A stretch of DNA of 61,694 nt, filler included, from Cystobasidiomycetes sp. EMM_F5 (lineage: Eukaryota), in the NCBI GenBank assembly GCA_051047955.1. It is 4 parts of 4 records of this genome, joined end to end, with 100 filler letters (N's around TTAATTAATTAA, not from the genome) between each part and the next. Parts side by side here need not be neighbours in the genome. Positions count along the whole stretch, not along the records: positions 36,849 to 51,942 come from JBPGPT010000074.1; 3 more parts are not named here. One strand, given 5' to 3'. Every line of letters starts with the position of its first letter. The stretch's first letter is position 1. A program made the translations under genes and the position numbers. Of the stretch, positions 33,737-55,600 are shown piece after piece. The notes beneath the pieces are model-generated. The model did not search any database and was not told where the DNA came from. It worked only from the letters and a program-made list of their open reading frames with translations.

Positions 33737-36554
33737 CTACGCTGCCAAGGTCTCGTGAAGCCACGCAAAGGCTTCATCGTCCAGCTCTCCGCTTGTCCCA
33801 GGTTGGGAGTCGAAGATATCGCTGAGCATGGCGTTCGAGAATTCAAAACTCCAGTCCAGATCCGTGTCCAGTGGATACGCAACAGCGAGGGATTGCGGTG
33901 CGGTAGGCTCTGCCAGGGCGTTTGGACAAAGTAGGGCATCCGAAGCATTTTGTTCCAGAAACGCTGACTCGAATGCAGTCGACGTGATCATTTTGTCGCC
34001 GGTGATCTTTTGCGAAGATGTCCCTGGCCCTTCGTCAGAGATGGGTGTTTGGTTATCCAGAGTTTGGAATGCCGTTCTGAACCAGGAAGCTACTGGACGG
34101 ACTTGCGACAACTCTTTCGCTGCAAGCCCGCATATTGCAAGGCGATGTCGTGACAACTCTCGTAAAGTCGCGTTAATAGACAACCGCTCAGATAGATGCA
34201 TAGACATTGCAGCGAAGAGCGCGGTAACACTATTAGCATCATCTCATTGGAATCCGGTGGTATTCAGAGTTTACGTCCTGTGCTTACCAGAATTGAGGAA
34301 CTTTACCGACATTTCCCTTCGTGAGCAGATCTAGACAGATCGTTGCTCTGTCAGATCAGCTATTTCGGGTCAAACGAGCGTTGCTCTGCATACCTTCGAA
34401 AAGGTGGGTTGCCGCTAGCGCTGACTGAGATGCCACAGTATCCGCCGGTTCAGTTGCGCTACCAGTGGATTGGCGAAACAGGTGAATAACCCAACAGCTT
34501 TACGGATGTCAGCATGGCCAGCAATGTAGGTTTAACCGCTCAGCTTTCGGCTAGCTCACTGGAAAGACAGGTGTAAAAACGCTGCGAAGAGGTTACCCGA
34601 GGTGTTTATGGTCGATAACGAAACCGGCAGGTCGCGCCTCCAATCGAGTAACGACTGGTAGCACGCTGCTTGCTGTAATAGTCCATAATCTTTTGCTGAA
34701 GCCAATCGGCACTTTACTATCTGCGTGACTGGGAAGAGTATAAGATCTCGCATGATTTGTTGAGGCAGATACTCACTGAGATGCGCCAGCTGCACCGATG
34801 CAAAAAACACTTCGTACTCCTCCTGTCCCTCGAAGTCTTGCCGCTGAGGCATCTCAACGTCAACAAAATCGTCATTGATGCGATACGGGCGTCCTGTGCC
34901 AGCTGCAGAATGCCTATCCCGAATATACACTGCCCACCACACTCGCCTCCAATATTGCCGATCTTCTTCAACGATTTTTGATGAGACGGTGGACTTGTGC
35001 ATACCGAGCGATTGAGCTGAACACGATGCACGAGCAGCCCACATATAGCTGTCCTAGTTTGATGCATCGACTTTAGTACAGACACGCGTTGTAGACTGTT
35101 CACACCTACTTCTCCGTCACTGGACACCTGCGAGATTAAAAACTCGAATATGATGACCAAAATCTTGTCTCGTTCGTACTTTGCATTGTATAATGCCTTC
35201 CCACGCTTCGCGAATGATCGCAACGCCTCGAATCGGTTCGCGAACCCGGCATGTTCTATGTCCTCCGAGGAGCATAAAGTGCAACCAACGTATAGCATTC
35301 CCCAGAGCAGTAGGAGAGGGATGGAGCCGGAAAGCACGTTTACGTACTTGTGCATGAAAGTCGCGCGCGCGATGATGGGATAATTGGGATGAAAGTATTG
35401 GAAATAGGCTGAAATCATGTTATCAAGAACGTGTTTCGGCGGCAAGACGAAACAGCCCATATCGGCAAGATACTGAGCTTCTGCTATGTCTTGTTTATTT
35501 GCGGGAGTCGACGTTGATCGCAATAGGGCGTTCATACCAGCCGGGCCGGGGAAATGCTCTCGCCGGGTCAAGCCAAGAGTTGCACCTGCACGCTGGTCCC
35601 ATTTGTGTCGAAGAATGTATGATAGTGTGAAGAGGTCGCTCGCATATGTAACGTCGTGCGCATCGTGCGTGGACTCGATGTCATGCCTTTCGAGCTGCAT
35701 GAGATCTGTCCAAGCATTGGTTGTGTCGGACTCCCTAGCCGGAGTCGTCTCGGCGAGTAAATTAGAGTCACTGTGTTTGACGAAAGCCATCAGATACTTG
35801 GCATGAAACGCTTGCCCAACCCTCACGCTCGACAACCCGACGCAGATCTCGTCGCGAAAGAGGATTGAGGCATAGGGAGCATAGCCTGAATACCAAGATT
35901 CTCGTCCGACGGAGTTGTCAGTCTGGCCGGGTCGTTGGGATTGTCCAGCATGGATCCGATGAGTTGACCGATGTCCACTGATGGATTGTCGGTAGCCATG
36001 ATAGTAGCGCTTCCAACAGGCTCCGAGTACGTTGTCCACACGGGAGGTACATTGCCAACACTTTGAGCCTCTGTGCCGTTGCCAGCGAGAGGTTGCGTGA
36101 TTTGAGCCCCGCCGCGGTTTTCGCCTTCCCCAGTGCGGCGACTTGCTTGCGGCGATATGCCTTTGAGGTTAGACTTCATCTTGCTCCGGTCATATCTGAA
36201 CAGCCGACGTGCGCAGAGTGTCAGCCTGCGACTGCCGCGTCGTTTCCGCGCCCGCTCCTCACTTTCCACGCCGACTCTGGACCAGCTCGCAGCTTCTCCC
36301 AGCAGCCTGGCAACGACTGCAAGGCAATCCATGCGATTTTGCATCGCATTTCTGGATACGTATGCATCACATCAGCTGCTGTTGTGCACATCACGTCATT
36401 GCAAAGTCCCTTCACTCACAGTCTTGCGCTTATTGCATTCCGTACAAGCCAATCCTGCTCGAGCAGCAGACCGCTTCACGCTTGACGGAGTCGCTGTACC
36501 GGCGGCACTTTCACTTGCAGTATCTGATGCGTCGACCACGGGAATGAGCTCCAT
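33737..36554 (-). CDS. Zn2Cys6 transcription factor with Fungal_trans domain (Ctf1/FarA-like)
   Basis: Spliced CTECNKRKT|KCDAKSHGLPCSRCQAAGRSC; YFQYFHPNYPII; KRGKALYNAKYERDK; RRVWWAVYIRDRHSAAGTGRPYRINDDFVDVEM. Confidence 0.9.
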
Positions 36555-36748
36555 GGCTGACAGATTACGACGTTGAGATGATGCAACCGGCGAAGTCGGG
36601 TCACGTCGGATTCACAGCTTTTATGCACGTCACATCACTTCCAGCTTCAGTAAGGCTGACTTCCCAATAAAGAAAATGGATTATCTTCGCGTTCCTTCAG
36701 AGTCGTATGCATTGGCGCCGGCTTGAGCGGAATCTAGTGAGTCTCCTG

Positions 36749-36848: not shown

Positions 36849-37102
36849 AGTATCAGTCCAGTTCGGCCAAGGCAGCCCGAATCTTCTAGCCAAGCATCCT
36901 TCATCAGTCTCGACCATTCTCAAAATCCAAGCCCCTCATCCATTTCGTTTAGAGCGGACTCGTCCCTGCAAAACAGGTGATGCTTATAACAATTCGAATC
37001 AGCGTAGTCACACACACTCCCATGTTTGCACGAGGGACGGGAACGTCCACAGCAACGGCAGCACTCGTACAAGGAAGTTTGTTGACAAAGCTAGCGGAAC
37101 GC
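36849..37102 (+). repeat. Inverted repeat, left copy (254 bp, cut by contig end)
   Basis: Reverse complement of 51689-51942 with 6 substitutions and no indels (hand alignment). Confidence 0.97.
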
Positions 37103-37812
37103 TCGACATCTGTCGACTCTTCACCGTCGACTACAGTGTGTTTGAGCTTGTCCAAACATGCACGGTGTCTCAGACAATGTGTGGCCACTGGCTTGGCTGC
37201 AGAAGCCAAACCACGGTACTGGACAGAACTTCCGCGACTCTTCTCGGACTCCGGCAGCTTCGGCGGTCCGGTGACTGGAACAGTAAATGCTTGCGCACTC
37301 TGATACTCAAGACCGATGACATTCTTCACAGATGCAGCAATGTAGAAGAACTTCACATTGGCACTGAATCGCAAAAGAGGAGTTGCTATCGTGTTGCTAC
37401 TGAATAAGCCCACCACACGAATTCGCCGCCTAACCTGACGGATTAAGAATCACTAGTCATTGACTTGAAAGACATCGTCAGGCCCTTATCTCTTCAAACC
37501 TTGTCGCTTCGTACGACACAAAAACACTAATACTCGTATACGTATGGTTGGTTGCAACGATATGGAAAATGTGTACAAGAACTGGTATTAGACGGCTGCG
37601 TTATTGGCGACACTGAATTGCGATTGATTATTGATAGCATGCCGGCGCTGTGGAAATTGACAGCGTGCAGCGTAGACCATTACAGTCGGTCACCCTTTCC
37701 GTTCTTACAGTCACGCTGCGCACTTTGTCGAAGTCCTGAACGTGCCATTGTTGCTTTCATGATTTTATCGATAGTTTCGTTAACGTCACATGGCAGCCAC
37801 GACTCGACGTGA
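36850..37812 (+). pseudogene. Decayed F-box/LRR-like gene, paralog of 50664-51941
   Basis: Frame open 36850-37407 (F-box-like TLDICRLFTVDYSVFELVQTCTVSQ; LRTLILK; CSNVEELHI), then stops. Downstream GKCVQELVLDGCVIGD parallels GKNIEELVLQGWVLED in the right-hand gene. Confidence 0.55.
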
Positions 37813-37850
37813 GCAACAGTCTCGTCAAGCTGACAGGCGATCCATCAGCG

Positions 37851-37904
37851 TGTTGCCGCAACGGGCCATGATCGCTTTGTTGCCGCAACGGGCCATGATC
37901 GCTT
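37851..37904 (+). repeat. Perfect 27-bp tandem duplication
   Basis: tgttgccgcaacgggccatgatcgctt x2. Confidence 0.95.
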
Positions 37905-38250
37905 GCGTGGTTGGACAACTGCCCTGATGCGTATCTGCCTGGCGTCGTAGCCCGTGTAAGGTGCTATCCTGGCGAGAAGTACGCGCAAGCATTTATCACA
38001 TTTTCAGCATTAGGACGCTGCACAGTGTCAGTATGGGCTGGCTCCTCGTGTTCGCGGATCGTATGCCGACTCATGAGACGCGCGGCTCGATACAAGCCGC
38101 AGAATTTCACGCTGTCTGCCTGCTATAGTGCTACAGGAGAAGATTAGTCTGACATTACAGCGAGCATAATTGAATAGTCAGAGGATCATTAGTGCTAGGG
38201 AGACCTTGACTCGGAATGCTGGCACCGTCAGCCCCGCTCAATCTGAGCCA

Positions 38251-39415
38251 ATGACCAGTCTTCAGGATCTGCCTGCAGAAGTGCTGGAGCTGATACTGTA
38301 CCATCTGCGTAGTCTGTCAGCGCACGTCGTCTTTGGCCAGCTGTGTTCTGCGACTCGACAGCTGTATTGCGACGTGGACGGCGACAATACCTGGCAAGCA
38401 ATACTCCGACGAGCAGGCTTTTCGCGGCCGTCAGTGTGGAGTTCTCGATACAGCTGGGGTCAGATTGCGGGTGCGCTTCCATCATGGCTCATCTTGTAGT
38501 TGGCCGTCGTCTGATGTGTGACGGTGCAGCTTGCATCGTTGGCCATGGTCAACAGTGTCGAGCATGCAAGGGATTGCTGAAGCGTTTGCCTGATCTTTCT
38601 GCTGACGTCCCACGTACGGAACTTGTTCGCCTGACCACTGACTCGGATCTGTGAATGCTCACACTGCCTCCACATGCCCAGCGGTCTTTGAAGAACCTCG
38701 TTTCGTTCCATCCATCAATGTCACACCCGCTCTGCGACAGTCAATCGGCTCTTTTTCTGTTGATTGGAATGAAGAGCAGCCGGAGTTACGTCCGAGGCTC
38801 ATTTCAAGCGCGACTACACCGGAAGTTGGGCTCAAAGGTCCTGCATCTCGAGATCACTCTCCGCTGACTGCGCATCCGACAATGGCATGCCGTTTAGGGA
38901 TGACACAGCCTATACGGCAAGTTTCGCTAGGCTTCGAGTGTACAGAAGAGCGTTTTCATTTCAGTAGGTTCCCTTCATCCGCCACTGTATCAATGACTGA
39001 TCTGGCAGCAATTGGACAGGCGGCTACGGGGAAGACCATCCGGCCAGGACTTTGGACGATTGGGACGAAGACTACGAGGGCGAGGCCATGCTGGCTATAC
39101 AATTTCGGCATATCTGTACAAACGCTGAAGGCATCACATGTTATGATCTCCTTCACGCTGCCGGTCAAGTGTAAGTCTCATAAGCATGTGATGCCCTTAC
39201 CTTGCTGACGTCTCCACAGACCTGGAGTGCCTGTTAGTTTGGGTGACGAGAAACCTCTCGTGTTCCGAGGCATGTTGGACGATCAAATTCGTCAAAGCTT
39301 GCTATGGGTGCAAATGATGCCTCCAAGATCTGCATTCAGTGGGCCATATACTCCTGCTTCCCACGCTGGACAAATTTTATGTGATGACGCGGAATACACG
39401 AATGTGGGAATTTGA
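38251..39415 (+). CDS. F-box protein, multi-exon (3' end uncertain)
   Basis: MTSLQDLPAEVLELILYHLRSL...LCSATRQL is a canonical F-box start; further exons are separated by GT-AG introns. Confidence 0.65.
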
Positions 39416-39560
39416 CGGTTCGACATACCACTGACGGTCGCCTGTTCGTCTGCAATCAAAACGAGGGCACTGACGCTGTAGTGGATTTCGACATTACAAC
39501 CTATGTCCAAGCATTGGCTGCGCTCTATTGCACACTACGGTATGTACATCGAGCCGAAGT

Positions 39561-40554
39561 ATGGGCCACATGGTCAGCGATACTAGATCTCGCAAAGACT
39601 TTGCAACACTGCTGCGTTGGCTGCCGCGAAGGAAGACGGACGGGATCACAGCAATCGGAGCGTTATTCGCGAGATTGGATGTATGCTTTCTCATCCTGTC
39701 ACATTTGAGGTTCTCCGAAATAGCGCGGACGTCCTTGCATTTGGCCAACCGAACTACCTATCGGGCGTGGGAACAATCTGCACATCAGTTGTGCGTTCTT
39801 TCGAAGAAGCCTTACCCTCTACTTCGCCCAGTGCCGTATTGCTACCAGCTCAGCACAAACACCTCGACCGTGACCACACTCCATGTCGCAACCGAGGACA
39901 TGGAGTCACTGGCTCAGGCGCTGAACATGCTCGAGAGTCTGGTGGGTTTGTCGATTCCGTCTCAATCGGTCTTAAAGTTAGTCCCCCGTAAGCCCTTGGC
40001 TCGCTTGCGGTACTTTCAAGTAGACCACCAAAGCGGGAGCTTTCTTATTTAACAATGCCAGATATCCTCTAGTCCCCAATCCTTCTGTCTTGGAAGAAAT
40101 CTCGTTCAGGATGAATCCCAGTCGTTACTTCTACGAAGACCTCGTGTGGTCATCAGGTTCATCTCTGAAGGTACTCTGTCTAGACAAATGTCCCGTAACC
40201 TGGTACGATCAAAAGGATTGGATGCGCCTCTGTGCAAAAGCATCACAACTGCGACACATTACCCTCCTAAGCGCCGGCCACGGATACCACGGCTTGATCA
40301 GGTCATTACCCGCTTCACTCATTAGCTTTACGATAACATGCAAGTCACATTATTGCTTTGCGGAAGTCATCAAGAGCGTGTCAAACTACGCAAGGTTACC
40401 GTTACTGCGCGAATTGGAATGCAAGCTGGATATGGCAAATGATGCGCTGTGTTGTCGTTTCGAGCCGTGTCGCTATGCAGCAGTCGAACCCTTTTCACAC
40501 GCAATCAAAAGGCGAATACAACTGCTCAACAAGAACATGGGCAAGGAGAGTTGA
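39561..40554 (+). pseudogene. F-box/LRR-like gene with stop and frame change at ~40050
   Basis: LFARLDVCFLILSHLRFSEIAR; LKVLCLDKC; HGLIRSLPASLISFTITCKSHYCF aligns with HGFISALPKSLVNFNLSVQHGCCL of 50664-51941. The two ORFs are in different frames with no clear intron. Confidence 0.55.
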
Positions 40555-41039
40555 CGTATAGCCACAACCCATGATAACGTAACTTCAGGCGATATTCTGC
40601 GTTGTATGATGTTACAAGATCTACCAAAGTATAGCATTTGTAGAGGGCAATACCCAAATTATTGTAGCTTTGGCGCCTTGAAAGCACTGCCAGTATTGCC
40701 AGCACGAGTTATGACCGCGACGATCCGAACTAGCATATCTATCGCCATCAACTAACGTTACATGGAACATGAACGGTCAGCTATATCACGGATGTCCATG
40801 CAACGCAAATAGCACATACCACGGGTATGACTAGATAAGGCAAATACGCGCTCATCAAAGTCCGATACTGCTCTGTTGTCAAATTGCTGGAGAGAACGTG
40901 GATTGGAACAAACTAGGTCGCAAGTCAGGTCATGACCGGTAGTACTTGGAAACGCGCTAAGAAAAGAGAAAGCTCCATTTTATATGGACGCTAACTACGA
41001 CACTCAGTATCGTTGGATGGAAACGTTGGCTCTGACTGA

Positions 41040-41126
41040 CGAATAATCCGTGTGACACAGCCCGCACGAGCTAACTTCTACAAGGGCTTCGTCTGGGAGA
41101 GGATTGATTAGCTCAATCGCCTCGAG
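41040..41126 (-). pseudogene. Remnant N-terminus of a Zn-dependent (aryl-)alcohol dehydrogenase
   Basis: LEAIELINPLPDEALVEVSSCGLCHTDYS contains the MDR catalytic-zinc motif. No GHE or GxGxxG exons were found downstream. Confidence 0.7.
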
Positions 41127-41335
41127 CCAATGGCGTGCGGGAGCTGGAAGCGATTTGAAGGACCTAGTAAAATTTGCGGAGATTACGAGACAGCAGATAG
41201 GCAGCTCAAACACGGCGCAATTAGCAGCCCCGAAAGCCTTGCAGTCTGCAGGAATTTGCAGCGCTTTCCCCTGCACGGCATTCGCCTTCTCCTCCCGGTG
41301 GGATCTAAGCACCGTTGCCGTGGCTCCGCTGGATC

Positions 41336-41349
41336 CCCGGATGTCCCGG
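41336..41349. promoter_or_regulatory. Candidate Zn2Cys6 site CCCGG-N4-CCCGG upstream of the P450
   Basis: cccggatgtcccgg, ~85 bp before the ATG; the same geometry occurs at 48603-48616. Confidence 0.4.
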
Positions 41350-41434
41350 ATAGTCGGTGCAATATGCAGACAAGCCTAGGAAGTCTGTATCTGTACATTT
41401 CTGCTGAACAGGAGCAACTGTCATAAAGCCCATA

Positions 41435-43175
41435 ATGTCCCTCACGCGCGTTGCCGATCATCTCTTGCTCCTTCCCCCAGCTTTCACCATTCTCGCTGGG
41501 CTCTTTTTGATTACATCGGTAAGCCAGCGCTTCTAGATACCTGCGTGCTCAATTCATGCGTAAGCACCATCACTTCCTATGACAAGGTGTATGGTATATA
41601 CTGGCTGTTTCTCTCGCCACTGGCCAAGTTCCCCGGACCACTGCCAGCCAGACTAAGCTTCCTCTGGCTTACACGACAATGTCGGCAACTGCGGCGGTCG
41701 CAAGCTGTAATGGCTCAACATGCGCACTTCGGACCATTTGTACGCATCGCTCCCAACCACATTTCTATCAATCATGAGGAGGCCGCCAATGCCATCTACT
41801 CCCATAAAGCCGCTATGCCGAAGAGCGAATTCTATGACGCTTTCTTGCAAGTTCGCCCGGTAGTGTTCAATGCCAGAGATGTTGGAGTGCACCAGAGAAA
41901 ACGTAAACGCATAAATCCGGCCTTCTCTGCACGAGCTCTGGCGGAATTCGAGCCGACGATGACGGCAGAGCTGCAGGCCTGGACGAAACGCTTGCTCGGC
42001 TTCGTCAAACCGCAACTCGAGGCGGAGCTTGACTTTGTCACATGGAGTGAGACCTTCATAACCATGACACGACTAGTCTGACTAACGGGATCCAGCAAAC
42101 TTCTTGGCCTTCGACGTGGTAGCAGACTTTGCATTCGGAACGTCTTTCGGATTCATCGAGGCAGGGCAAGATCCAACGAATCTCATTGGCGTCATTGATG
42201 CCCGAGGAGAGGTATTGAATGCCCTCGGAACAGTTCCCTCATGGCTTCGGACCCTGTTCAAATACAACTACCTGGATCCGTGGTGGCGTAAAGGGCTGCG
42301 AGCAACCGCCAACTTTGAATACTACGGTCGAAAGGCCTATCAAAAGCGCTTGAATAGTCATGGTGGTCAGCAAGACCTCTTGTCGCACCTGTTTGATGCT
42401 AAGGATAGTGGCGATCCGATTGCAGAGGACGAGATTATCGCGGAAGCGATAAGTTTTATCGTTGGGGGAAGCGATACGACCAGTAGTACAATGGCAAACT
42501 TCGTAGACGTCGTCGCCCGCGACCATAATTTGCAAAAAAAGTTGCAAGCCGCCCTAGACACGACCTTTCCAGGCCAGCAGGACGAAGCATGGGTTGCATC
42601 AGGTAGAGAGGCAGAAAGCTGTGCCTTCCTCGTAGCAACGCTTCGCGAAGTTATGCGAATACGACCTACCAGTTCTACTGGTCTGGAACGTATCGTGCCG
42701 GAGGGCGGACGTGTAATTGCTGGCACTTTCGTACCGGGCGGGGTAAGTCGATGTGACGAAGGAAATATCACAACTTCAATACAACTCACAAGTGAATGTT
42801 TGGGTGTGCAGACAATTGTGAGCATGCCAACAATAGGCCTTATGCAAAATCCTACCATATTCGAGGATCCCGCAACATTTCGACCGGAAAGATGGCTCGG
42901 TGAGAATTCAGCGCACCTCATCGAGTACTTCCTTCCTTTCTCTATTGGACCTCGTGCTTGTATCGGACGCAAGTGAGTAGAATTCTAATTGCCGTACCAG
43001 CAGCGAATGAATCTATATCCACAGCTTCGCCTGGATGGAGGTGCTAAAAGCCATGGCGACTATCTTCAAGCTCTTCGACGTGGAGAGAGTCACTAAGGGC
43101 CCCACAGAGTCGCGAGAAGGCTTCTTCAACAAAATCGGTGAATGTAAGTGCAGAATCCGCAAGCGGGAACCGTAG
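41435..43175 (+). CDS. Cytochrome P450 (benzoate monooxygenase-like group)
   Basis: SPLAKFPGP, GPFVRIAPNHISI, I-helix FIVGGSDTTSST, EVMR, RPERW, heme motif FSIGPRACIG; appears intact across 4 introns. Confidence 0.93.
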
Positions 43176-43753
43176 CAGTAAAACTCCAGTCAAGGCCCAG
43201 CAGCATTGCTTTACTGCATGCTTCTTCAGAGCGGATGTAAGAGCGCTTAGACGGCATGGGGTAAGAAGTGCGCACCTTGGGCGTTAGCTTTTGTTACGCC
43301 AATTTTTGCGAATTAAAAGCACTTGTGACGGTTGAGCTCGAAGTCACAGCGAGAACATTACTAAGAGCTCGTCACGGACATTTGCGCTCAAGCAGTATCG
43401 CGCCGATGCTCTTAGACGCTACTATAGTGACTGTTCACGTCGACAGGAGGGCGCCAGCATGGCACTTGCAGTCTGCCAAGTCTCGCTGGTCTCCACCAGT
43501 ACTGCCTTACCGGACGACCCGTACCCGTTTGCTGCAGGCCACATCCGGTACCAAGAGAGTGGGCGGTATGCTCCCTTGTGCTCGGTAATACCCCGATGCC
43601 GTGTCAAGAAAGGCGGAACCCGGGACATGTACAATCCGAAAGCTTAAGGGGGCGCCGCAGCTGTCTTCCAGCGCTTTTCTCTGTAGACATCTGCAAATCC
43701 AGTTGAGAAATCAAATCATCCATTCTGCACATCTGCTGACATTCGCTCGTACA

Positions 43754-45310
43754 ATGACACCTGCTACAAATGGCCAGACGAACGGAGATCATGCCCTAAT
43801 TCGAGCCAATCTCCTAGCTGAAACCGTGGTACCGTCTGTATTGGACAACAACGCATGGCCCTCTCTAGCCTCGACCTACCTCTAAATGATCCCTACAGCG
43901 GAGAGAAGCTGTACGATGTCTCCTACATGACCGTGGATGACTGCCTTGCTGCAGTGGAGAGTGCTTGGAAAAACGTTTCGAACATTGGAAGAACACGTGC
44001 CCAGTAGAGAGACGAGCCACCTTCGACGAAGCAGCGACCTTGTTGCTCGAGCGACAAGACGAGTTTGTCAAGCTCGCAACGACGGTACGACTGCTAATGG
44101 ATCTGTGAGCTTGGATTTATCAGAGGACCCAGCGCTGAGTAACGGGTGTGTCCCGAGGAGCACGAATCGGATGCTGTGAACCACACCATTGCAGTCTATC
44201 GTTCTCTCCTCCATAGTGCCGTCAACATGCAGCTCGCCTGAAACGTCATCAACGAAACGTCCGCCCTCGCTACAGCTCCTAAGGAAGTGATAGTGCCGGG
44301 AGAGCACGGTTCGAGAGCCTACGCTGGGCGTATACCTTACGGCGTTGTCTTTGGCATGGCCGTGTGTCAGATGGGGCCGCTATAAGCCGCGCTGACACCT
44401 CGCGGACGGGCAGGCGGTTCTTCCTTTTTCGTTGTTCATCTTCTTAACCTGTTTTTGTCTTCGCCTTTGTCGTGAATCTCGTACAAATCTACAATGATCC
44501 GACTCTTGACCAATGAACCACGTTTGGTCAATGCCCAGCGGTTGCGTCGGTCGCGTACAAATTGTGCTATCTACCGCGCTTCGCTTGCGACGTGCAGGTG
44601 GGATGCTCCTTTGACCCTCGCGGTTCGCGCTCTTTGCAACGCCATCATGGCCGGCAAGACCGTCGTGTTGAAGACCTCCGGATACTCGCCGAAAGCCCAT
44701 ACTTAGCAGTCCAGCTTTTCGTAAATGCTTAGTCCACGTTGCGCTCTTGGATGCTCTGGCATTATGCGAGAAGATCGTTGCGCATCCTGTGGTTCGCAAG
44801 ATCAATCTCACCGGTGTGACTACTTGAGCGTCAGGAGTAAAGGGATCGGAGCTCAGCAAGGCTGCCAGGTTCGACGTTTGTCGGAGCAAAGCTAGCACGA
44901 CATGCGGCAAACACATAAAGCCGGCCTGTATGTAACTCATTGGGAAGGCATCAAGCCCATCATCGTCATGAACGATGCCAACGAGCGAGCCGCTCCCAAT
45001 ACATAATGTCGTCGTTGGTGGTTGTTTCTCGCATCAGGGTCAGATATGTACGGCGTAAGTCTGCTCGTATGGTGCCGGCTGGTCGTCGGCTGTTACACCT
45101 TCTCACAGGCTCAGCACACTGACTGTCGTCTGCTGTCAACAGGTCAAACTCACTGTGTATACACGAGGACGTACCCACGAGAACCTACCGAATGACTTCA
45201 TAAAGATCTTTGGAGCCATGTCGAGGACGAAGACAGTGTCCGGTATGTCCTGGGACCACCTGACCAGACAAGCGCAGCTCTGTCACGGGAAGCGCGTCCG
45301 ATCCTTCTAA
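43754..45310 (+). pseudogene. Aromatic aldehyde dehydrogenase (salicylaldehyde/vanillin DH-like), heavily disrupted
   Basis: Fragments DDCLAAVESAWKTFRTW, WDAPLTLAVRALCNAIMAGKTVVLKTS, AHPVVRKINLTG, GSTFVG and FSHQGQIC lie in different frames with stops. Confidence 0.8.
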
Positions 45311-45352
45311 GGTAGCGCACCAAACTTCGTTATCGCCCGAGGTATGTCACAT

Positions 45353-48190
45353 TCAGTGTATCGCGTTTCCCTGGCTAAGCAACATGTCCAGCTCGCTACC
45401 GGCCGCCAAGCCCCATAAGGAGTCTGGCATAAGGTAACCATCTGCAAAAGCATTCGTGCTGAACCAGTCTGGCTCGAGCAGACTCGAGAGATCAGTCGGG
45501 ACTGAGAGTGCTGCCAGGGTTTCATGCAAGGATACTAGCGTGAGACCGTCAGTTTTGTCAAGACCTATAACCAGCGGCCCATCCCACCTTGAAAGTCGAT
45601 ATTGCCTTTGGAAGTATTCGGCAACGCCGACATAATTCTTTCTGCCGTGTTTATACACTCTTGCGACGAGGCACACGGTTCAGGCATACCCTTCATCAGA
45701 GCGATGCAGTCCTCGCAGGCCTTGACACGAACCGACCGGTCGGGCACATTCGCTACTCCAGTGACACCTGTGTCTAGCTGTTTGTGCAGTAATGATCCAG
45801 CCAAAACTGTAAACGCGCTGAAGTCTACGAATTCCATCAGCATTTGCGATCTCGTCTGTAGCACAGCTTACTGTAATATAGGCGATACCATGCTGAACCT
45901 CCCTTTGGCCATTGCTGTCTGCTCGCTAGAACAGTCCCGAGGGCAATGATACGAATAGCGTCTTGCGTACAGATGGCTAAACCGGCCAGACAGGTGTTGT
46001 AATCGATAGACGGTGTGATTGTTCCATTGCCGACTATTGCGCGCGGTCGGCACACATCGAGAGCCTGGGCGATTAGGGGTCTGTAGGCTAGCATTCTGAC
46101 CATCAGGAATCGAAAGGTGAGCACGATGCAGGGTGCTTCGTATGGCGTCGGATCCCACAGAGGTGTCAGATTGGCGTCTAATAACAAAGCTAGGTGTGCC
46201 GGAACTTCACTCTTCCACATTTCCAGCTGCTTCATGTATCCAGCAGTGTCAGCTTTACCAGAATCAAAATTGGCTTCCAGTATGCGTCCAAAGATCGCAT
46301 ACAGTCCACTGTGAGTAACGTCAGCCCAACGCGACGTGCTCCCACACTGTGCCCTGACACAAACGCACATGCAAGCTCTGAGAAAATTCATGCGATGCTC
46401 TGACTCGCCTGGCAACGTTCGGGGTAAATTCGGTCCTGTGAGATATGCGCCGATGCCACCTGGACGACCCAGAGTCATTGTTATCGACCTGTCAGAGGCA
46501 CAATCAGTCGAGCATTCTAGGGTCGAATCGTAATAAATTGAGAAGCATGCCTGTCAAGGATGAAAATGACCCAGCTAGCAGGCTGAGTGTTAGTACTACT
46601 GAAGCGACGACCTCTGTAGTTCTGCACTCACAAAGTCCGAGAAGCCGATTCAACAGACGCTGTGTCCCGCCTGTCGACACATGGCCGATTTGTGTGCAGG
46701 CCGAGAGCAAAAGCCATGTTGATCGCCCAGTGCAAACTTTGTGACGCTTCTACATGGTGATCCGTCGATTGAAGATACTGGCACATGATAGTAGCAGCTT
46801 GCACTGGGCCGCCAATCCAGCGTTAAAAAACATGAGAATAAGAGGGGGATCGGAGCTTGCTCACCAGTAATTAGTGTTCTTCGCATACCCCTCTCTCCGA
46901 ATCCTAGCAGCGAATGGGCCGCATGAGCGTGCTGTTCTGCTTCTTTTCGCTTGCCTTTGACAGCATTGGCAAGGGCGAACACTGCATGCAGTAGCGTTAT
47001 GAGATCGGCTGCATCGGGTATGAGGGCTAATTGGGCAGGAGGTATGCAGGCGTACATTACGTACGCGTTGCGGACATAGCCCGCTGGCAGGATTGGCTGT
47101 AGTAACGATGGATTCAGGCATGCCACAGGCGCGGGATGCATTAGAGTAGACTTACATAAAGCGGCAAAGTCTCTCCTTCGTACACGTCGAGCAAATCGTA
47201 CGCTACGTCCTTTGCTGGCAGAATGTACAATGACGGGTCGCGAAGAGGCGGCCGAGTAGTTGCGATTCCGAGCGTAGGTACGCCTGTGCCGTTGGCATTA
47301 CCGTTACCATTGTCCGGACGATCCTTCTCCAACAGCTTGAGCATGGGTCCTGCGAGGTCTGCAGGGGCTATTGGATCGAAGAAGACGGTGTCTACGAGTT
47401 CTCGATGTCCCAGGCCCATGGCCGAGATGGTTGTTACCGGCGACGCAGTCGATGTGCCACCTGCAGATTGCGAAGCTGAAGGAATGCCTTTGGCGTTTGT
47501 CGCTGTCACGTCAGACTCGGAGAGCGTCCATCTGTGCTATCGTGTATCAGCGCCATCTGTAAATCGCAAAAGTCTGTCTGTCCGCGTGGGAGCACGCACG
47601 GTGCAGTATCTTCGCATTGCTCACGGGGGGCAGCTGGGAGCTGACGTTTGAGTAGTGTAAGAAGACGTTCATTCTGCTGCTCCAGAGACTGTAGGCGGTC
47701 TTCGAGCGGGTTGATACGGGATAGGGTGCTGTAGCCCCGGCATCAGCTGCAGTACCACGGGATACCTTACAACGCGGGGCTCTTACTTTGCGACTGCGGG
47801 GCCGACCGAACTCTGGATCACCTGCTGCGGGGTCAACAGTACCCCCACATCGTCCCCGAAAGCCGCACCGTTGCTCGTCCCCGTATTGAACGAACACTCG
47901 AAGCCGTACTCTCGGCAATGGCTGCAGAGCGGTTTGCTCCCGTCACACTGCGTGGGCAGAGGGCTACAGATGAGCGTTGATTCTTTTGGTGCTTACAAGC
48001 CTTTCGACTTTACCCTTGTCTTTTTGGTGCGGCAGCTCTGGCACGCAATAGCGACCCTGCGCCTCTTGAATCCCGTCAAGGCGGTCCGCACCGACTCGCT
48101 GCCGCTGCTGGTGCGGTCTTCTGGCGGCTCTGCTGGCATTTCGAGGCAGACCTGCTGCTGGGCTGCTGCTGCAAAGTCGACATACTCCAT
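45353..48190 (-). CDS. Zn2Cys6 transcription factor
   Basis: RRRVAIACQSCRTKKTR|CDGSKPLCSHCREYGFEC; middle region DPRMLD..SMTLGRP; FRFLMVRMLAYRP. Confidence 0.85.
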
Positions 48191-48602
48191 GTCCCACCGT
48201 GGGTTTATGCTATGCAGATGTGCAGGCGTGCAGAGGGCACTGACGAGCATGAAACAGGTTGGGTAATTGTAGCTTGAAGCTGGTTGTAATGAGACTTGCT
48301 TGCGATGTAACAAGGTCAAAGGCTAATGTTAACAAGTAGACAAGTCTGAATGTTAATGTTACAGCTACGCAAACTAACGAAATACACCGTCTGGACGTCG
48401 TTCTATGTCAGACAACGAGTCCTGGCGAGCGTCACTGTGGATTTCAAACCAAAAGTACTGCAGCCTGATGGTTCTTCTAAACGAGCACAACATTGGCAGG
48501 AAACGGAGACCCACGTTCCGTAACTCGGCATAGAATCGAATAGGTGTGTTCCGGGGTGGACATTGCTGATGTAAGCACGCTGCCCAAGTCCCGGTCCTCC
48601 TG

Positions 48603-48616
48603 CCCGGCGTTCCCGG
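48603..48616. promoter_or_regulatory. Candidate Zn2Cys6 site CCCGG-N4-CCCGG in the factor/dioxygenase divergent promoter
   Basis: cccggcgttcccgg within a CGG/CCG-rich stretch (48551-48637). Confidence 0.4.
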
Positions 48617-48773
48617 CTGATCCGCGATACCCGGGGACCTCGACGTACGCTGCGTGGAACCACCTTCGATGTAGAAATGAGCCCGACAGACTCACAACAC
48701 TGCGGTAATCTTCGAGTGCTTCTCATTCGGCAGACTTTTCTTCGCTCTCCGCCGCCTCCTACTTTCTTCCACC

Positions 48774-50211
48774 ATGGGACCCCTCACCCAGCCTGACGGT
48801 GTCCCCGCAGTCGAGATCTTGCAGAATCCGGGAACCGCTGACGAACTGGCCTCAAGCCTGAAGGAGCTCAATGTAGAGCCCTTATGGTAATTCTCTGGTG
48901 CCAATCTGGGCACGGCAACGGCGAAAAGCGGCTAATCAACCATTGTGTACTCGTACAGGCTGAAAATGACTAAACTCAATCCTCCGCTGCCTAATCCTAA
49001 AACGACTCCCTTCCTTTGGAAATACGATAAACTGCGCCCTGCCCTTCTCAAAGCTGGAAAGCTCGTCTCCGAAAAGCAAGCCGAACGACGCGTTTTGATG
49101 CTCATCAATCCCAGTGGAGGTGAGAGTGGATCGTACAAGTTGCAGACGCCGCAGTGCCAATGCTTTAGCGGTTTGTTGTTTCAGAAGCGCCTCAAACGAC
49201 CGATACTCTCTACGCCGGAATGCAGCTCGTCATGCCCGGGGAGACAGCGCCCGCTCACAGACATGCCGCCTTTGCTCTTCGCTTCATTATCGAAGGCAAC
49301 GGCGGCTTTACCGCTGTGCAGGGCAGGCGATTCGCAATGGAGCGGGGCGATGTGATTTTGACTCCAACATGGGATTACCGTCAGAGCTTGTTTGCTTGTA
49401 GGGTATCATCAAGCTGACTTCTGCAAAGCAGACGACCATGGCTCCAAAGGCGACACGCCCATGCTGTGGCTCGACGGACTCGACCTGCCGCAGTGGCAGG
49501 TGCGTCTGAAATATGCTTGCAGAGTGACGGGCTGCACCTCTGCTAACTCACACTGGCTTGTACAGCACTTTCCCTGTCATTTCGTGCAACACTATGCAGA
49601 GGATCGCTAGTAAGTAATCGCAAGCTTCAATCAAGTGGAACGCTAATCTGAAATCTTGCAGTCCTGCCGAGGATGTTACCACTCACCCTACCCTGTTTCC
49701 TTGGAAAGCCACGCAGCTAGCTCTCGATCAGATCTCTGACGATTGGGCCGTGTACCGCTACCGAGGATCGCCTGAACACGGCGCCTCCCACACTGGAGAG
49801 GTCAGTAAAGTCATCGGCGCACAGGCAGAGCGTATACGCGCTGGCAAGGCGTCAGGTCCGCCTCGGCAGGAGACTTTATCGATGGTATACCACGTTGTCG
49901 ATGGCGAGGTAAGTCATATAGCCACCGAGAAAGACCGCTTGAGTCTGATGACTGTCGTGAAGGGCGCGTCGAAGATCGGTGAAGAGACATTCACTTGGAA
50001 GAAGGGCGATACTTTCTGCATCCCGAGCTGGTATCCGTATCAGGTCGGTTCGCCGTGTAGGAAAGACATCGGAGATAGTTGGCTGACCCCGAATTTTCAG
50101 CACTTCGCTGGCGAACAGTCAGATTGCTATCTGTACCGCTTCGATGACTATCCTATGATCTCGTCTCTGGGCTTCTACCGGACTTCGTCAGAGCGATGGT
50201 ATGAGAAGTAG
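48774..50211 (+). CDS. Gentisate 1,2-dioxygenase (bicupin)
   Basis: [65 protein letters not shown], and second cupin [12 protein letters not shown]. Confidence 0.95.
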
Positions 50212-50663
50212 CGTGAATGATGGCACTTAATGTAGGTCAAGAACAGTCAGATCTGTGTTGAGAAATTAAGTTTGTTGTCATCTACACCAACTTGAACTTC
50301 TGATAGCATCAAAGCTGATTGCCGATGCTGCCCCCATTTGCAAGCGCTATGAAGTGGCATAGTATGAACAACAGCAGTGGGCAGGCTGCGCGAAGGAGCT
50401 AATAGACGTTTGCAGAGCGGGTGTCACGTTGTTAGGAGGCACCAACTGCGTTCCTCTCAGTCCGTCGCCATACTAGAGCGGGGGCACCATGGGCAGTGGT
50501 GAAGGAGATTCATCGGCCAGGCTCATAGGTGTGCGTGCGCGTTGCCACCCCTTCACGCGCCTTCAAGCAGGCAGACGGTTTGACGCTTCGGACAGCTCTG
50601 GCCAAGCGCTTTAAAGGTCACAATCGAGTCAATTGAGTCAGGTCTTTCTGAAAAACTTTACTT

Positions 50664-51941
50664 TTAGGAATTCTGCTGCCATGGGATGGATCTGCATTCT
50701 GATGCCGTGGAATGGTTACACATGCGTCGGAAATCGACTAGCCTGACTTTTCCCGATGATGGGCCCCTGCGTATTCTGGCAGTTAGCGCGAGGAGGTGTG
50801 TTTTCCTGTTGAAGGGGAGCCTGGGACATCGGATGAAGTCACATTGCATCTCGTAAGGTTCTCTGATGGCAACGGTGGATGATGCCTCCTGCAAACAAGG
50901 CAAGGAACTTTTGATGCTACGAATATGTAGAAGACAGCAACCGTGCTGTACGGATAAGTTGAAATTGACGAGCGACTTTGGAAGCGCTGAAATGAAGCCG
51001 TGATTTGCTGGCGCGGTAAGAGATCGCAGGTTTGGTGCTCGCAGAAAGAGCTTCTGCCAATACGCTTCATCGTCTTCCAACACCCAGCCCTGCAGAACTA
51101 ATTCTTCAATGTTCTTTCCAGCAACGACCAGAATATGGGCGAGCCAGAAGCTGTTCATGCGTCGCAGTACAACCCGTACTAAATTGCGTCCAGTGATCAG
51201 GTGATCGATACTGTTGAGCCCGGCACCACCGCAGCCATCCAACTCCAGGCTTTGCAGAAATGGTAAGGAGGGTCGCGTTTGGAGCATGGCGAGTTGGCGG
51301 TCCCCGCCACGGATGACGAGGTCGATAATTGCAGGAAAATTGGCTAGAAAATCAAGATAGAGGCCGTGCATGGGAATCGGAATAGCATTTAGGATTAAGC
51401 CCTGATCTGAAGCCGGAACTCGGCAATCTAATTGCTCGCGCATCTCAGCGAGGGATTCAGAATAGATGCCGGTCCGACTGATTAATTTGATGGAGTTTGC
51501 AAGTCTTGTTGAGTACGCCTCGCTGAACATTGTTGATACTAGGCGCAAAGTCCTGAGGCGGGAGACGCAGAGGTTATTGAGGATGATTCCGAACAAATTG
51601 GTGTTACCGAAACTTCTTGCGTATAGGTCTGTATGAGTGTTCAGCAAGGGTGCCTTGACGTCTGTCGTAACATTGGTGTCTGGAGTGGGCGTTCCGGTAG
51701 CTTTGTCAACAAACTTCCTTGTACGAGTGCTGCCGTTGCTGTGGACGTTTCCGTCCCTCGTGCAAAAATGGGAGTGTGTGTGACTACGCTGATTCGAATT
51801 GTTATAAGGATCACCTGTTTTGCAGGGACGAGTCCGCTCCAAACGAAATGGATGAGGGGCTTGGATTTTGAGAATGGTCGAGACTGTTGAAGGATGCTTG
51901 GCTAGAAGATTCGGGCTGCCTTGGCCGAACTGGACTGATAC
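50664..51941 (-). CDS. F-box/LRR-like protein, 5'-partial (frame open to contig end)
   Basis: F-box-like FGNTNLFGIILNNLCVSRLRTLRLVS; LRR-like LQSLELDGC, NIEELVLQG, PNLRSLTA. No in-frame ATG before the F-box. Confidence 0.6.
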   Translation of the reverse strand, partial: VSVQFGQGSPNLLAKHPSTVSTILKIQAPHPFRLERTRPCKTGDPYNNSNQRSHTHSHFCTRDGNVHSNGSTRTRKFVDKATGTPTPDTNVTTDVKAPLLNTHTDLYARSFGNTNLFGIILNNLCVSRLRTLRLVSTMFSEAYSTRLANSIKLISRTGIYSESLAEMREQLDCRVPASDQGLILNAIPIPMHGLYLDFLANFPAIIDLVIRGGDRQLAMLQTRPSLPFLQSLELDGCGGAGLNSIDHLITGRNLVRVVLRRMNSFWLAHILVVAGKNIEELVLQGWVLEDDEAYWQKLFLRAPNLRSLTAPANHGFISALPKSLVNFNLSVQHGCCLLHIRSIKSSLPCLQEASSTVAIREPYEMQCDFIRCPRLPFNRKTHLLALTARIRRGPSSGKVRLVDFRRMCNHSTASECRSIPWQQNS

Positions 51942-51942
51942 T
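51689..51942 (-). repeat. Inverted repeat, right copy
   Basis: Reverse complement matches 36849-37102 at 248/254 positions. Confidence 0.97.
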
Positions 51943-52042: not shown

Positions 52043-52044
52043 GA

Positions 52045-52152
52045 CAGCCACTAGACTCCGTCCATGCCCTGGTAGACTGCGGAGCGACAGCCGACTTCAT
52101 CGACGTCGACTTCTGCGCCTTACACAACCTCTCGCAGGTCCTCAAGCCTGTT
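52045..52152 (+). mobile_element. Ty3/gypsy retrotransposon aspartic protease fragment
   Basis: QPLDSVHALVDCGATADFIDVDFCALHNLSQVLKPV matches the retropepsin ALxDxGAxxxFID motif; absent from the ORF track. Confidence 0.8.
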
Positions 52153-52302
52153 AATAAGGAATCCATTTTGTAAAAAACTCAGTATAATTTTTCTGAGAAT
52201 TTATCCGTGTAGTATGCACAAAAAGCTATCCAACGATGTGCTCCTCAAGGTTTTACACCTAAGTTTCGATTTGATACAGCGTTTCAAAACTTTCGCCACA
52301 TC

Positions 52303-52612
52303 CGAACCCTGACCTGGTCGACCCTTTCTGCCCTGACAACAGAAGGGTTAGGGCTTTTCTGTAGTCGGGGTTTCCGTTCTCAGGGTGCGACTGGTGTTCA
52401 GGGTTTGACTAAGGAATTTAAGGCAGCTTTACAATGTCAGGGTCTGCGGGGTCAGGGTCAGCAATTTTAGGGTCAGCGGCACTGCCGGCACCACAACAGC
52501 ACCAGCTGGACTTATAAGGAACGCACCTAGTAGAGCTGTCCTGAGGCTGGGTACAGACCCAGAAAAATTGATCTCAGGGTCAAGGTCAGGGTAGTGGCAC
52601 CGCCGGCACCAC
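52303..52612. repeat. Degenerate telomere-like / subterminal repeat patch
   Basis: AGGGTTAGGGCTTTT at 52344, several TCAGGG units, and a direct repeat agggt(c)agYggcacYgccggcaccac at ~52469 and ~52588. Confidence 0.6.
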
Positions 52613-55600
52613 TCGGCCAGGTCCAAGTGGCGGCAGTTATGTTTTAGTCTCGCTCCAACCAGACATGCACTGCAACATATACTGAGAATCTGGGAAATGT
52701 GTTATCCAAAGCTCGCAGGTTCTTCGCCAGATCTCGAGCGGACGTCGCGCCGTATTTCGTTTCCGCCTCAAGATCCTTTGCGCAAATAATGCCCTCAAAC
52801 CAAGACCCATACCGCATCACAACCAAGGCTGACAGAGAAGATCTGCAATAGAGACCGCCAAAGATCGCTGTAAATGTTTTGAGCGGATTGCTACAGCCTA
52901 TGAGAGTGAGTCAGTCGGCAAAAGCGTCAACATCGACGAATGCTGATATGCTCGTTTGACAGCTACTGCTTGGTCTTGAGGTCAACAAGCCTAGAGATAA
53001 CACAACCACGGCTCTATTGACTGTACTGTCGAACTCGTCTAGTAGCTTCCACTGACAATCTTACGTTTATTGGCCTTTCTCTTGCTCTCGTATATAGAAA
53101 CCTACAGTCCTCTTTCACTTTCACTATGCTTATCGTACTCTAAGCTACAACCTCTTTATTACCGATCTGCGCTATTGTATGGCTCAACATCGGAGATGTT
53201 GGCGTCGACCAGCTCACCAGATGAACAGACCGCGCGGCAAGACATCTCTGTTATCAGGGCATGCTTGTCACATGTCTCGACGCTAGGATTCAAACTATAC
53301 CCTGATGCAATCAATTCCAGCTCAAGACACGCCTCCTGAAGGTCGCACATGATCCATGGATCCCCAGTAACTTGTCTGCGAATCTAGAGCATCATCGGAG
53401 CCTTGATCTACACACAGTCTTGGATAAATTTGTTATAATTACTGAATGTTCTGAATTCGAAACCGTTCGTACGTACTGATGCCGAGTCTGCTTCTGCGCG
53501 GCGCGTCGTTTCACTTAATTTGGAAAACCTCGCGTCCCGTTGACTAATAGCCACACGGAGCCGTCTATCGTGCCTGCTCCAGACAAGATCATTGCTCAGT
53601 TGACCGCACAGGCCTACAATTCATCGCAATGTTTGGCCTCCCATCTCCACCGCTTCTCATCGTCATCGCTGCGGCACCTGGCAATCATAAGGTGAAACAA
53701 AGTGTCACACACTGCCGTCGTGACGTCAACACAGAAAGCTGATTCGGCGAGTGCTTAATGTAGGTAGCGTGGCCTTCAACGATGGCACAGGCATTCACTG
53801 CGTCTCTCTAGCCTTCGGCTCCAGGAGTCAAGGAGGCCAGTCTTCAAGAAAGTCTCTCAAGGCTAAGAGAGCTGCAAAGATTTCCACACGTACCGTGTGT
53901 CTGGCAGGTAGGCAGCGGATTTTGAGCATTGCGACTTTAATTCTGCAATATACACCCAAGCATAGGAGCCGACGAGTCTTGCCTACAGAGACGACCCATC
54001 CGTCCAATCGTCGTATCCAAGTCGTCCGAGCATCCTGCGTGAAAATCAACCGCGAAGGCCCGTGGGCTAGGTTCTTTTGCTTCTATGAAAGTAAATTGTC
54101 TCCATCCGGGGCCTGATCAGTGTCAGACGGCCTATCTATGCAGCGGTCACGGGTATGGTCCACTTGCAGCCACTCCGGGGGGCCGGCTGACAGGTTTGGG
54201 GTGAGGATTGATCCTGCTTCTGCCATCGAGTGACTGGCCACCGTCTTCAGCGCGGAACAACGCCGAGAAGGAATATACACCATATTCGAGGTGCAAAAGG
54301 CTTTCTGATGTGGTACTGACAAGAGCTTGTACAGAGACTGGCATTGACATCGAGTATCCACGGCAAGCTGCATGGCAGGGGCCAGGTTGGCATCAGCACC
54401 CCACCTCAATCAACATTATCGCTAAAATGCATGAATGTAAGTTCACTCGTACGGTAACCTGATGCATTCTGAGTCCGTATTCTTCCCAGGTCCGTATGGA
54501 ATCGTTACACGCAGTACAAATTCGTCAAGCAGATGTTCTTTTTCTGCTCAGGGCAACGGGTCGAGACCAGGTCTTGTTGAGTTTGGCTTGCACAATGTTT
54601 GTATGGAATACAATGCCGAGCAGTACTATGCCTGACGCGATCTCATCTTTTTGTGCTGTCTCATGCACAGATGCCTCTTTCTCCCGAACGCTCTTGAACT
54701 TAGTCCTCCTTGAGCGTACAAAGTCCACTCCACGGTCCGTACGGCCTCCCCTCCCACTCCTTCTCGTTGTCTTTGGCTCTTACGCCGTCTCGCGCTACTT
54801 CTTCCTTCGCATTTCTCCGGGAGATTGTTGATTGCGACAATCTCCGTGATTCCATTCGACTTGATTGTGCGCAACGCCTGGACTGCGGCCAGAATGTTCA
54901 ATTTGCAGTACAATCAACCCTTCATACAGAGCAACCCCGAAACTTCGATTGCTGTGTCTCGGTTTCGTCATGGCGACTAAGCAGTCTGCGAGTCACAAAG
55001 ACGCACAGACGATACGAGCAGGCGAAGGTTTTTTGATGGAGCTAATCAAAGGATCGGCCAGCATCAGTGTGAGTATCGTGTTGTACAAAACCTTGAGAAT
55101 CACTAACACAACTCACAACAATGTAGTCCTCACTGCGGTTCCACGAATGTTACAGCTCAATGCTTCTTTCCAGCTCGTGCATGCATGTACTACATTGTCC
55201 GAAGATCCCAACTCCACCCCTGTGCTGGCAACGCTTTACGATCTACATTGACACTCCGATGGTAAATATACTGCGACTTGCCGCCGGTCCAAGTATGGCG
55301 ATAGCTGGCTCCTTCGCATTACTCTTTGCCGGAAACGCTAGGCTGTACCCTATGTTCTCCTGGTCAGGCATTCGCGTGCTGGGGGCTGGGCCACCGGTGC
55401 TGCCGGGCTGATTCTACATTCAGGGTTGCCAAAAGTCTAGAAAGCATGCTTGCCCGGCTGCTGCAGTGCAGTGTTGGAACCTTGTCGAGCGGTTGCATGC
55501 AATATGTTGGATCAAACTACATGCGCCATCGACTGCATTGGTGATTCTCTACAAATTTTGTCAGCCAATTCCCCGAGAATCCCTCTTGCTGGCGCAGCGT

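Follow-up and report, generated by a model that had tools for sequence, protein, structure and literature searches.

Inverted repeats at the 5' ends of F-box/LRR-like paralogues bound a 15-kb contig with a partial aromatic gene cluster in a basidiomycete yeast

Why does a 15-kb contig which carries genes of putative aromatic catabolism begin and end with the same sequence in inverted orientation? The question is raised by contig 3 (JBPGPT010000074.1) of Cystobasidiomycetes sp. EMM_F5 (assembly GCA_051047955.1), which occupies positions 36849..51942 of the window, i.e. of the entire stretch of 61,694 nucleotides analysed here. A first-pass annotation had reported an inverted repeat matching at 248 of 254 positions and reaching both contig ends, which is reproduced exactly: positions 36849-37102 and 51689-51942 are reverse complements of each other with an identity of 97.6%. 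The six mismatches are found at arm positions 56, 103, 134, 176, 193 and 246; the outer 55 nt of the left arm do not differ from those of the right arm, and past nucleotide 254 the similarity stops abruptly, no further homology following inward of this sharp boundary. On the outside each arm is truncated by the end of the contig, and the repeat probably extends past the contig, as had been supposed from the outset. A 21-mer of the arm matches twice in the window while it matches in none of 100 shuffled versions (0 in 100/100), and a low-stringency BLASTN search revealed no third copy of the arm in the window. Metagenome and viral contigs, collections which need not include the host yeast, contained no exact match to the arm patterns. 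In the only run listed (X1, a DNA run, share 0.06), positions 36849-51688 are represented by three contigs of 151-241 nt, none of which covers an arm. The features of contig 3 are compiled in Table 1.

Table 1. Features of contig 3, with positions referring to the whole window.
Feature	Position	Strand	Remark
Left arm	36849..37102	+	cut by contig end; forms 5' region of gene A
Gene A	37103..37812	+	broken F-box/LRR-like paralogue of D; in-frame stops at 37405 and 37528
Perfect 27-nt tandem duplication	37851..37904	.	sequence repeat
Gene B	38251..39415	+	F-box-like motif at N terminus; partial model from frames
Gene C	39561..40554	+	F-box/LRR-like paralogue of D; two frames, intron or frameshift between
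Cytochrome P450	41435..43175	+	intact, 500 aa, 4 introns
Aldehyde dehydrogenase pseudogene	43754..45060	+	frameshifts, stop at 44239; weakly like vanillin/salicylaldehyde dehydrogenases
Zn2Cys6 transcription factor	45565..48190	-	Zn_clus E 1.8e-6; open 663-aa model needs 10 introns, one GC-AG
Gentisate 1,2-dioxygenase-like bicupin	48774..50211	+	intact, 357 aa, 6 introns; activity predicted
Gene B-like relic, 73 nt	50393..50464	-	68% like gene B part 38682-38754, inverted orientation
Gene D	50664..51941	-	F-box/LRR-like ORF, 425 codons, open through right arm to contig end
Right arm	51689..51942	-	cut by contig end; 5' region of gene D

Within both arms frame 2 is open and continues in frame with genes A and D, and four of the six arm differences are non-synonymous in this frame. 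A small Markov model (order 2) applied to the inner half of the arm favours frame 3 (0.005/0.019 vs -0.177/-0.149 for frame 2). The two indications conflict, the model pointing to frame 3 and the continuity with A and D to frame 2, and either may be the coding frame. In frame 3 the left arm contains ATG codons at 36980 and 37022, neither of which is present in the right arm. Two of the six differences thereby abolish the sole two plus-strand ATGs; the corresponding chance of about 0.004 belongs to a pattern which was spotted post hoc. The arm has no stable fold (z 0.93), an Rfam search returned 0 matches and a family search with four arm frames gave no match.

The junction of the left arm coincides with the start of an F-box-like motif. 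In gene D the first in-frame ATG occurs at 51530 and none is found ahead of its F-box-like motif. Alignment of the LRR-like part of A with D is equalled in 3 of 1000 shuffles and that of the C-terminal part of C with D in 0 of 1000, while the LRR parts of A and C show no significant likeness to each other (454 of 1000 shuffles as good). Judged from these alignments, A, C and D are distant paralogues, A and D facing inward and A being broken. No significant mutual likeness is seen among the F-box regions of genes A-D, the closest pair being equalled by 97 of 1000 shuffles. That F-box/LRR-like genes occupy both flanks, as initially annotated, can be upheld tentatively: in the Atlas, gene D resembles F-box clusters (0.94), but the Pfam F-box match of gene B stays below the cut-off (E 0.044; 14.2 bits vs 20.5), and A, C and D do not match this Pfam family. 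The left arm together with gene A gave no usable match in the Atlas, no homologue of gene D was obtained by a word search and a full phmmer search, and the single-sequence fold model of D is unusable (pLDDT 31).

Contig 1 of the same window served as control. It, too, terminates in an inverted repeat (58 nt, 95%), its arms being two inverted copies of a frame which we take to be the C-terminus of histone H4. It comprises 21,548 nt while its counterpart in the Logan assembly comprises 21,490 nt, exactly 21,548 minus 2 x 29, which is the length predicted by a break at k=31, the value used by Logan (10.1101/2024.07.30.605881), within the 34-nt identical block of the contig 1 arms. From this match and the histone-like ends it follows that contigs bounded by repeats are ordinary in this assembly. 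Contig 1 begins at a mismatch, without 55 identical bases as in contig 3; hence no single overlap rule accounts for both contigs, and “k=55” would be merely a guess. Logan splits contig 3, the P450, the regulator and an ORF at 41130 being located on a contig of 11,029 nt and the first ORF of gene C on one of its own of 1,309 nt. The former piece is consistent with a right end at 51727, the position expected from the arm pattern, and further breaks of the repeat type may lie in the F-box flank of contig 3. Exact look-ups in Logan succeeded in 4 of 10 and subsequently in 1 of 10 cases, none of them on genes A, B or D.

Starting from what is observed, i.e. the repeat, the anatomy of the genes, the paralogy of A, C and D, the broken genes and the control contig, we consider it probable that the arms mark the inner margins of a more extensive duplication covering the 5' ends of the inward-facing genes A and D, at which the assembly broke. 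A and D would be members of a fast-evolving F-box/LRR-like family with a near-identical stretch at their 5' ends, which may have become 97.6% alike through ectopic duplication or gene conversion in the recent past while the remaining gene parts stayed distant. A longer identical outer part, the length of which is a matter of inference, would have collapsed during assembly, leaving the unique interior as a contig with the repeat at its start and end. This interior would be ordinary chromosome in which F-box-like genes subject to birth and death flank a partial, decaying aromatic cluster, with no driver of a programmed flip or jump. A precedent exists in so far as 97.6%-identical arms of homogenised paralogues are described to break short-read assemblies (PMC9731477). 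Read in this way the locus itself matters little, and it cautions that short-read assembly yields contigs bounded by inverted repeats at paralogues.

As to the genes in between, the initial designation “gentisate-catabolism segment” holds in part: the dioxygenase, the P450 and the Zn2Cys6 regulator can be modelled as intact, but the aldehyde dehydrogenase is broken and further enzymes of the pathway were not found. The dioxygenase has 7 PDB matches (best E 5e-25), and the relatives of the P450 are annotated as benzoate 4-monooxygenase-like. In the W-N-A-P motif of the aldehyde dehydrogenase pseudogene the conserved Asn is replaced by Asp, and a stop lies where the catalytic Glu would be expected. 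Pfam was run on the 126 stop-to-stop frames of at least 60 aa of contig 3; these frames include neither a fumarylpyruvate hydrolase family (the gaps between mapped genes measuring <0.9 kb) nor a maleylpyruvate isomerase nor a flavin salicylate/3-hydroxybenzoate hydroxylase, a P450 being present instead of the latter. As far as can be predicted from sequence, the cargo is short of a full gentisate pathway. The P450 would probably hydroxylate a benzoate-type compound and the dioxygenase would cleave the ring of gentisate, presumably under a local regulator, while later catabolic steps may be encoded elsewhere or be absent. As to the isomerase, contig 2 exhibits a weak, sub-threshold match to MDMPI_N (E 0.0088).

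In fungal gentisate (GC) and gentisate-like clusters, too, the gene of a gentisate dioxygenase adjoins that of a C6 regulator, and an aromatic aldehyde dehydrogenase is encoded close by (PMC3914699, PMC7842363). In contrast to them, contig 3 shows no fumarylpyruvate hydrolase, maleylpyruvate isomerase or flavin salicylate hydroxylase, has a P450 instead and carries the dehydrogenase as a pseudogene. Furthermore, the GC clusters reported in PMC3914699 stem from Ascomycota whereas the present host is a basidiomycete yeast (Cystobasidiomycetes). On 34 frames neighbouring P450 relatives Pfam returned 2 matches, both unrelated. At 0 of 8 loci with P450 relatives were dioxygenase, dehydrogenase, regulator or F-box frames found, a weak comparison as flanks of 10 kb exist only at the near-duplicates L005 and L006. 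A quick, midpoint-rooted tree, computed from the window protein together with 51 of the 120 matches listed and containing no named basidiomycete or outgroup, puts the window P450 on a long branch with one sister; as built, this tree cannot show horizontal transfer. The named relatives among the 120 matches listed all belong to filamentous ascomycetes. The locus may be noted in passing as an instance of an incomplete gentisate-type cluster in a yeast of the basidiomycetes.

Near-identical inverted arms can, as already pointed out in the first-pass annotation, recombine in principle, which is exemplified by the FF region of Saccharomyces (PMC9731477). It is conceivable, if unlikely, that contig 3 undergoes passive recurrent inversion of the same type, in which rare crossovers during gene conversion between homogenised kilobase arms present in two copies would flip the 15-kb interior, giving rise to both orientations among strains in an unregulated manner. 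Such inversion is an extension of the duplication of paralogue ends and not its replacement. The FF region of chromosome XIV, with its Centroid-family inverted repeat, shares with contig 3 a segment of about 15-24 kb between inverted, 97.6%-identical arms which are tied to a fast-evolving paralogue family and at whose junctions short-read assemblies break, no dedicated recombinase being involved (PMC9731477). The equal arm identity, the equal assembly behaviour and the linkage of the arms to such a family speak for this type of inversion, as does the faint second inverted similarity between the flanks of contig 3 constituted by the gene B-like relic. The FF arms, however, measure 4.2 kb, comprise complete and intact pairs of genes and are documented in both orientations (PMC9731477), whereas in contig 3 only 254 nt of arm are visible, the similarity ceases no later than the F-box-like motif, one of the genes is broken and the shared sequence is confined to 5' parts. 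Against such inversion, even the 4.2-kb FF arms failed to flip in about 53,800 mitoses and 950 meioses (PMC9731477). Should both orientations exist among strains, contig 3 would be the counterpart, in a basidiomycete, of the Saccharomyces flip/flop region.

The unseen outer part of the repeat could also belong to a dispersed repeat, for instance to the end of a transposon. The arms would then be the ends of two dispersed copies of a mobile element, or the terminal repeats of a ToxhAT-like non-autonomous cargo element that captured, or can move, the cluster, which we regard as rather doubtful. ToxhAT, a 14-kb unit which resembles contig 3 in its size (about 14-15 kb in both), its inverted ends and its accessory cargo, has been seen inverted from repeat to repeat, but its terminal repeats of 74 bp are complete and it encodes a hAT-like transposase internally, whereas the outer ends of contig 3 are unseen, no transposase was found and its arms enter host genes (PMC6737239). 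The sharp inner boundary and the position of the left junction at the start of the F-box-like motif would suit an element, and the named relatives of the P450 allow an old transfer. Any such transfer would have to be old because of the long branch with one sister. Against mobility, both arms continue in frame into host genes, neither their frames nor their fold provide any sign of an element, and the GC content (0.49-0.58 in 750-nt bins) resembles that of the other contigs (0.50-0.52). The remark that no transposase or recombinase is visible inside is borne out by the 126 Pfam-scanned frames, which include no mating-type family either. A mobile cargo element or a regulated invertible cassette receives no positive support: a mobility enzyme is missing among these frames, the arms read as 5' parts of host paralogues, one flanking and one cluster gene are broken, and contig 1 repeats the pattern with histone-like genes. 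Nothing found indicates that the segment flips or jumps.

We consider it highly improbable that the inversion is programmed and condition-dependent, be it of the Ogataea flip/flop type or shufflon-like, switching expression of the cluster or swapping the modules of A and D on a 5' part outside the contig. The open frame 2 across both arms and the missing ATG ahead of the F-box-like motif of D would be in keeping with such a swap, and in Ogataea, too, no dedicated recombinase was found (PMC5720833). In the mating-type switching of Ogataea polymorpha a segment of 19 kb, comparable in size, is likewise bracketed by inverted arms. There, however, the arms are identical over 2 kb, the two alternative MAT loci are functional, and the switch involves centromeric silencing and is induced by starvation (PMC5720833, PMC5499181); nothing of this kind is seen in contig 3, the visible arms of which are 97.6% identical. 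Two functional alternative loci do not exist beside its arms as gene A has in-frame stops, the six arm differences, four of them non-synonymous in frame 2, contrast with Ogataea arms identical over 2 kb (PMC5720833), and an effect of inversion on the cluster genes, which have upstream regions of their own and lie 4-12 kb inside, is not obvious. Equally remote is the idea of a eukaryotic shufflon with the repeat inside coding sequence, in which inversion would exchange the F-box/LRR substrate-binding module of A and D on a constant 5' part, alter ubiquitin-ligase targeting and carry the cluster along, A being an OFF state or recently decayed. If inversion did swap F-box modules or were induced by aromatics, this would be programmed rearrangement outside mating type, of which a non-exhaustive literature search yielded no case; a superficial search for this class combined with F-box or gentisate retrieved nothing directly relevant. 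Finally, a misassembly with one artefactual arm, suggested by the location of both arms at contig ends, is scarcely credible as six scattered differences argue for two real copies and the Logan lengths agree with the same layout.

The two ends of contig 3 form an inverted repeat whose arms agree at 248 of 254 positions (they differ at arm positions 56, 103, 134, 176, 193 and 246), the similarity ending sharply after position 254. The repeat proclaimed in the first-pass annotation, which had described reverse-complementary contig ends of 254 bp, is hence real. A 21-mer of the arm matches twice within the window compared to no match in 100 shuffles, and BLASTN at low stringency yields no third copy within the window. 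Since the contig ends truncate both arms and their outer 55 nucleotides show no difference, the repeat very likely continues outside. None of the four arm frames tested matches a Pfam family and no unusual fold of the arm was found. The window consists of four contigs separated by N spacers; its genes are fungal and contain many introns, and the closest named relative of one contig 1 protein belongs to the Cyphobasidiales.

Positions of the contigs and of the principal features discussed, counted along the window
Feature	Position
Contig 1	1-21548
Contig 1, repeat arms	2-59 and 21490-21547
Contig 2	21649-36748
Contig 3	36849-51942
Contig 3, repeat arms	36849-37102 and 51689-51942
Contig 3, gene C	39561-40554
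Contig 3, P450 gene	41435-43175
Contig 4	52043-61694

Reading inwards from both arms leads into F-box/LRR-like genes, referred to as A on the left and D on the right. Gene D consists of a 425-codon frame which is open up to the contig end and which the protein-cluster resource Atlas places near F-box clusters (0.94, recognition 2677), while sequence searches returned no homologue of it; gene A is interrupted by in-frame stops at 37405 and 37528. Aligned over their LRR-like portions, A and D outscore 997 of 1000 shuffles, and gene C, a further such gene, outscores all 1000 when aligned with D, whereas the alignment of A with C is not significant. The F-box-like parts show no significant likeness between the genes. 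Judged from their sequences, the two flanking genes A and D diverged as paralogues long ago, yet their 5' ends are almost the same, a pattern suggestive of a recent duplication or gene conversion. Neither arm interrupts frame 2, which continues in phase into A and D; read in this frame, four of the arm differences are non-synonymous and two synonymous. In the inner half of the arm, frame 3 scores as more coding-like in a small Markov model; in the left arm it starts with ATGs, and it ends in what we take to be an F-box-like start. The left arm carries just two ATGs on its plus strand (36980 and 37022), and two of the six differences alter both of them in the right arm, a pattern with a chance of about 0.004 which was spotted post hoc.

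Contig 1 provides an internal control as it is likewise bounded by an inverted repeat (58 nt, 95% identity). Its arms differ at three positions, all protein-silent, and both encode the same 19 residues plus stop, presumably the C-terminal end of histone H4. The version of contig 1 in Logan, a second assembly, is 21,490 nt long, exactly as predicted for a break at the 34-nt identical block of these arms. Thus, two of the four contigs are repeat-bounded, one of them through ordinary paralogues. Logan contigs are, according to their description, assembled at k=31 (10.1101/2024.07.30.605881). That contig 1 begins on a mismatch while contig 3 begins on 55 identical bases counts against a single break rule. 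Logan splits contig 3 further, the P450 and regulator genes sharing a contig of 11,029 nt with an ORF at 41130, which is compatible with a right end at 51727, as predicted from the arm pattern, and extra breaks around gene C. The latter gene lies alone on a contig of 1,309 nt, suggesting that it is bordered by repeats or has another copy elsewhere in the genome. The one sequencing run identified covers three small stretches of contig 3, none of them on the arms.

A Pfam scan of the 126 frames of at least 60 aa in contig 3 returned P450 (two matches), Aldedh, Zn_clus and Cupin_2 (one each), two further, unrelated families remaining below cut-off; transposase, recombinase, hydrolase, isomerase and flavin monooxygenase families were not found in these frames. 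The lack of an internal transposase or recombinase noted at first pass is thereby confirmed. The dioxygenase (357 aa), whose cupin matches solved gentisate dioxygenase structures, and the P450 (500 aa) yield open models with canonical introns; for the regulator, an uninterrupted model of 663 aa can be built by accepting one GC-AG intron. The aldehyde dehydrogenase gene, in contrast, is broken by frameshifts, by a stop at 44239 and by a further stop in the place expected for the catalytic Glu; moreover, Asp replaces an Asn conserved in the aligned structures. Fungal gentisate clusters, as far as described in the sources cited, contain a hydrolase (PMC3914699, PMC7842363) and, in those of PMC3914699, also a salicylate hydroxylase, whereas neither a hydrolase nor a flavin monooxygenase was found among the 126 frames. 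The aromatic cluster is therefore partial and decaying, and the designation as a gentisate-catabolism segment is not borne out in this form, only the dioxygenase, P450 and regulator giving intact models.

The inverted repeat of contig 3 is thus real and probably of an ordinary kind. We favour, with reasonable though not strong confidence, a fixed segment in which two family members lie head-inward about 15 kb apart, an ectopic duplication or conversion would have copied the 5' region from one to the other, and the assembler may have been unable to cross the longer identical outer part, leading to the contig break. The closest case described in the sources cited is the Saccharomyces flip/flop region, whose arms are 97.6% identical, homogenised paralogues, at whose junctions short-read assemblies break, and which occurs in both orientations among strains, albeit without a single inversion over some 53,800 mitoses and 950 meioses (PMC9731477). 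Homologous recombination between the arms of contig 3 could likewise rarely invert its interior, but that the same duplication and assembly break are accompanied by passive inversion among strains appears unlikely. Slightly less probable still is a dispersed element or cargo unit, against which the absence of a transposase or recombinase from all 126 frames argues; ToxhAT, by comparison, possesses complete short termini together with a transposase (PMC6737239). The Ogataea switch employs identical 2-kb arms and two functional MAT loci (PMC5720833), whereas gene A is broken and no mating-type family turned up among the 126 frames. None of the findings demonstrates the proposed mobile or invertible cassette; a programmed or shufflon-like switch is highly improbable, as is a misassembly. 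The duplication of a paralogue's 5' end in a fixed segment remains our preferred reading.

Among the 120 matches listed for the P450, named relatives reach about 64% identity, and all of them belong to genera which we take to be filamentous ascomycetes, while the host is a basidiomycete. A quick midpoint-rooted tree places the P450 on a long branch beside a single unnamed sister; from sequence comparison, an old transfer is possible. Other contig 3 genes have no matches in eight metagenome loci carrying P450 relatives, most of these loci being short.

Elsewhere in the window, a weak sub-threshold match to the N-terminal domain of mycothiol maleylpyruvate isomerase (E 0.0088) at 26066-26446 (-) in contig 2 is probably due to chance. 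Several long open frames without Pfam family occupy 25181-28239 and 19626-20879. Contig 4 starts with a frame (52045-52158) which has no Pfam match and presumably resembles a retrotransposon protease motif; its other end is formed by a telomere-like array that mixes units of 6 nt and 9 nt (61434-61694), to which a stretch near 52337 is related. Contig 2 contains a direct duplication of 68% identity (24579-25046 and 33750-34211) which reads as paralogous protein C-termini, as well as GA-rich tandem arrays of 17-nt and 73-79-nt units at 30189-31113.
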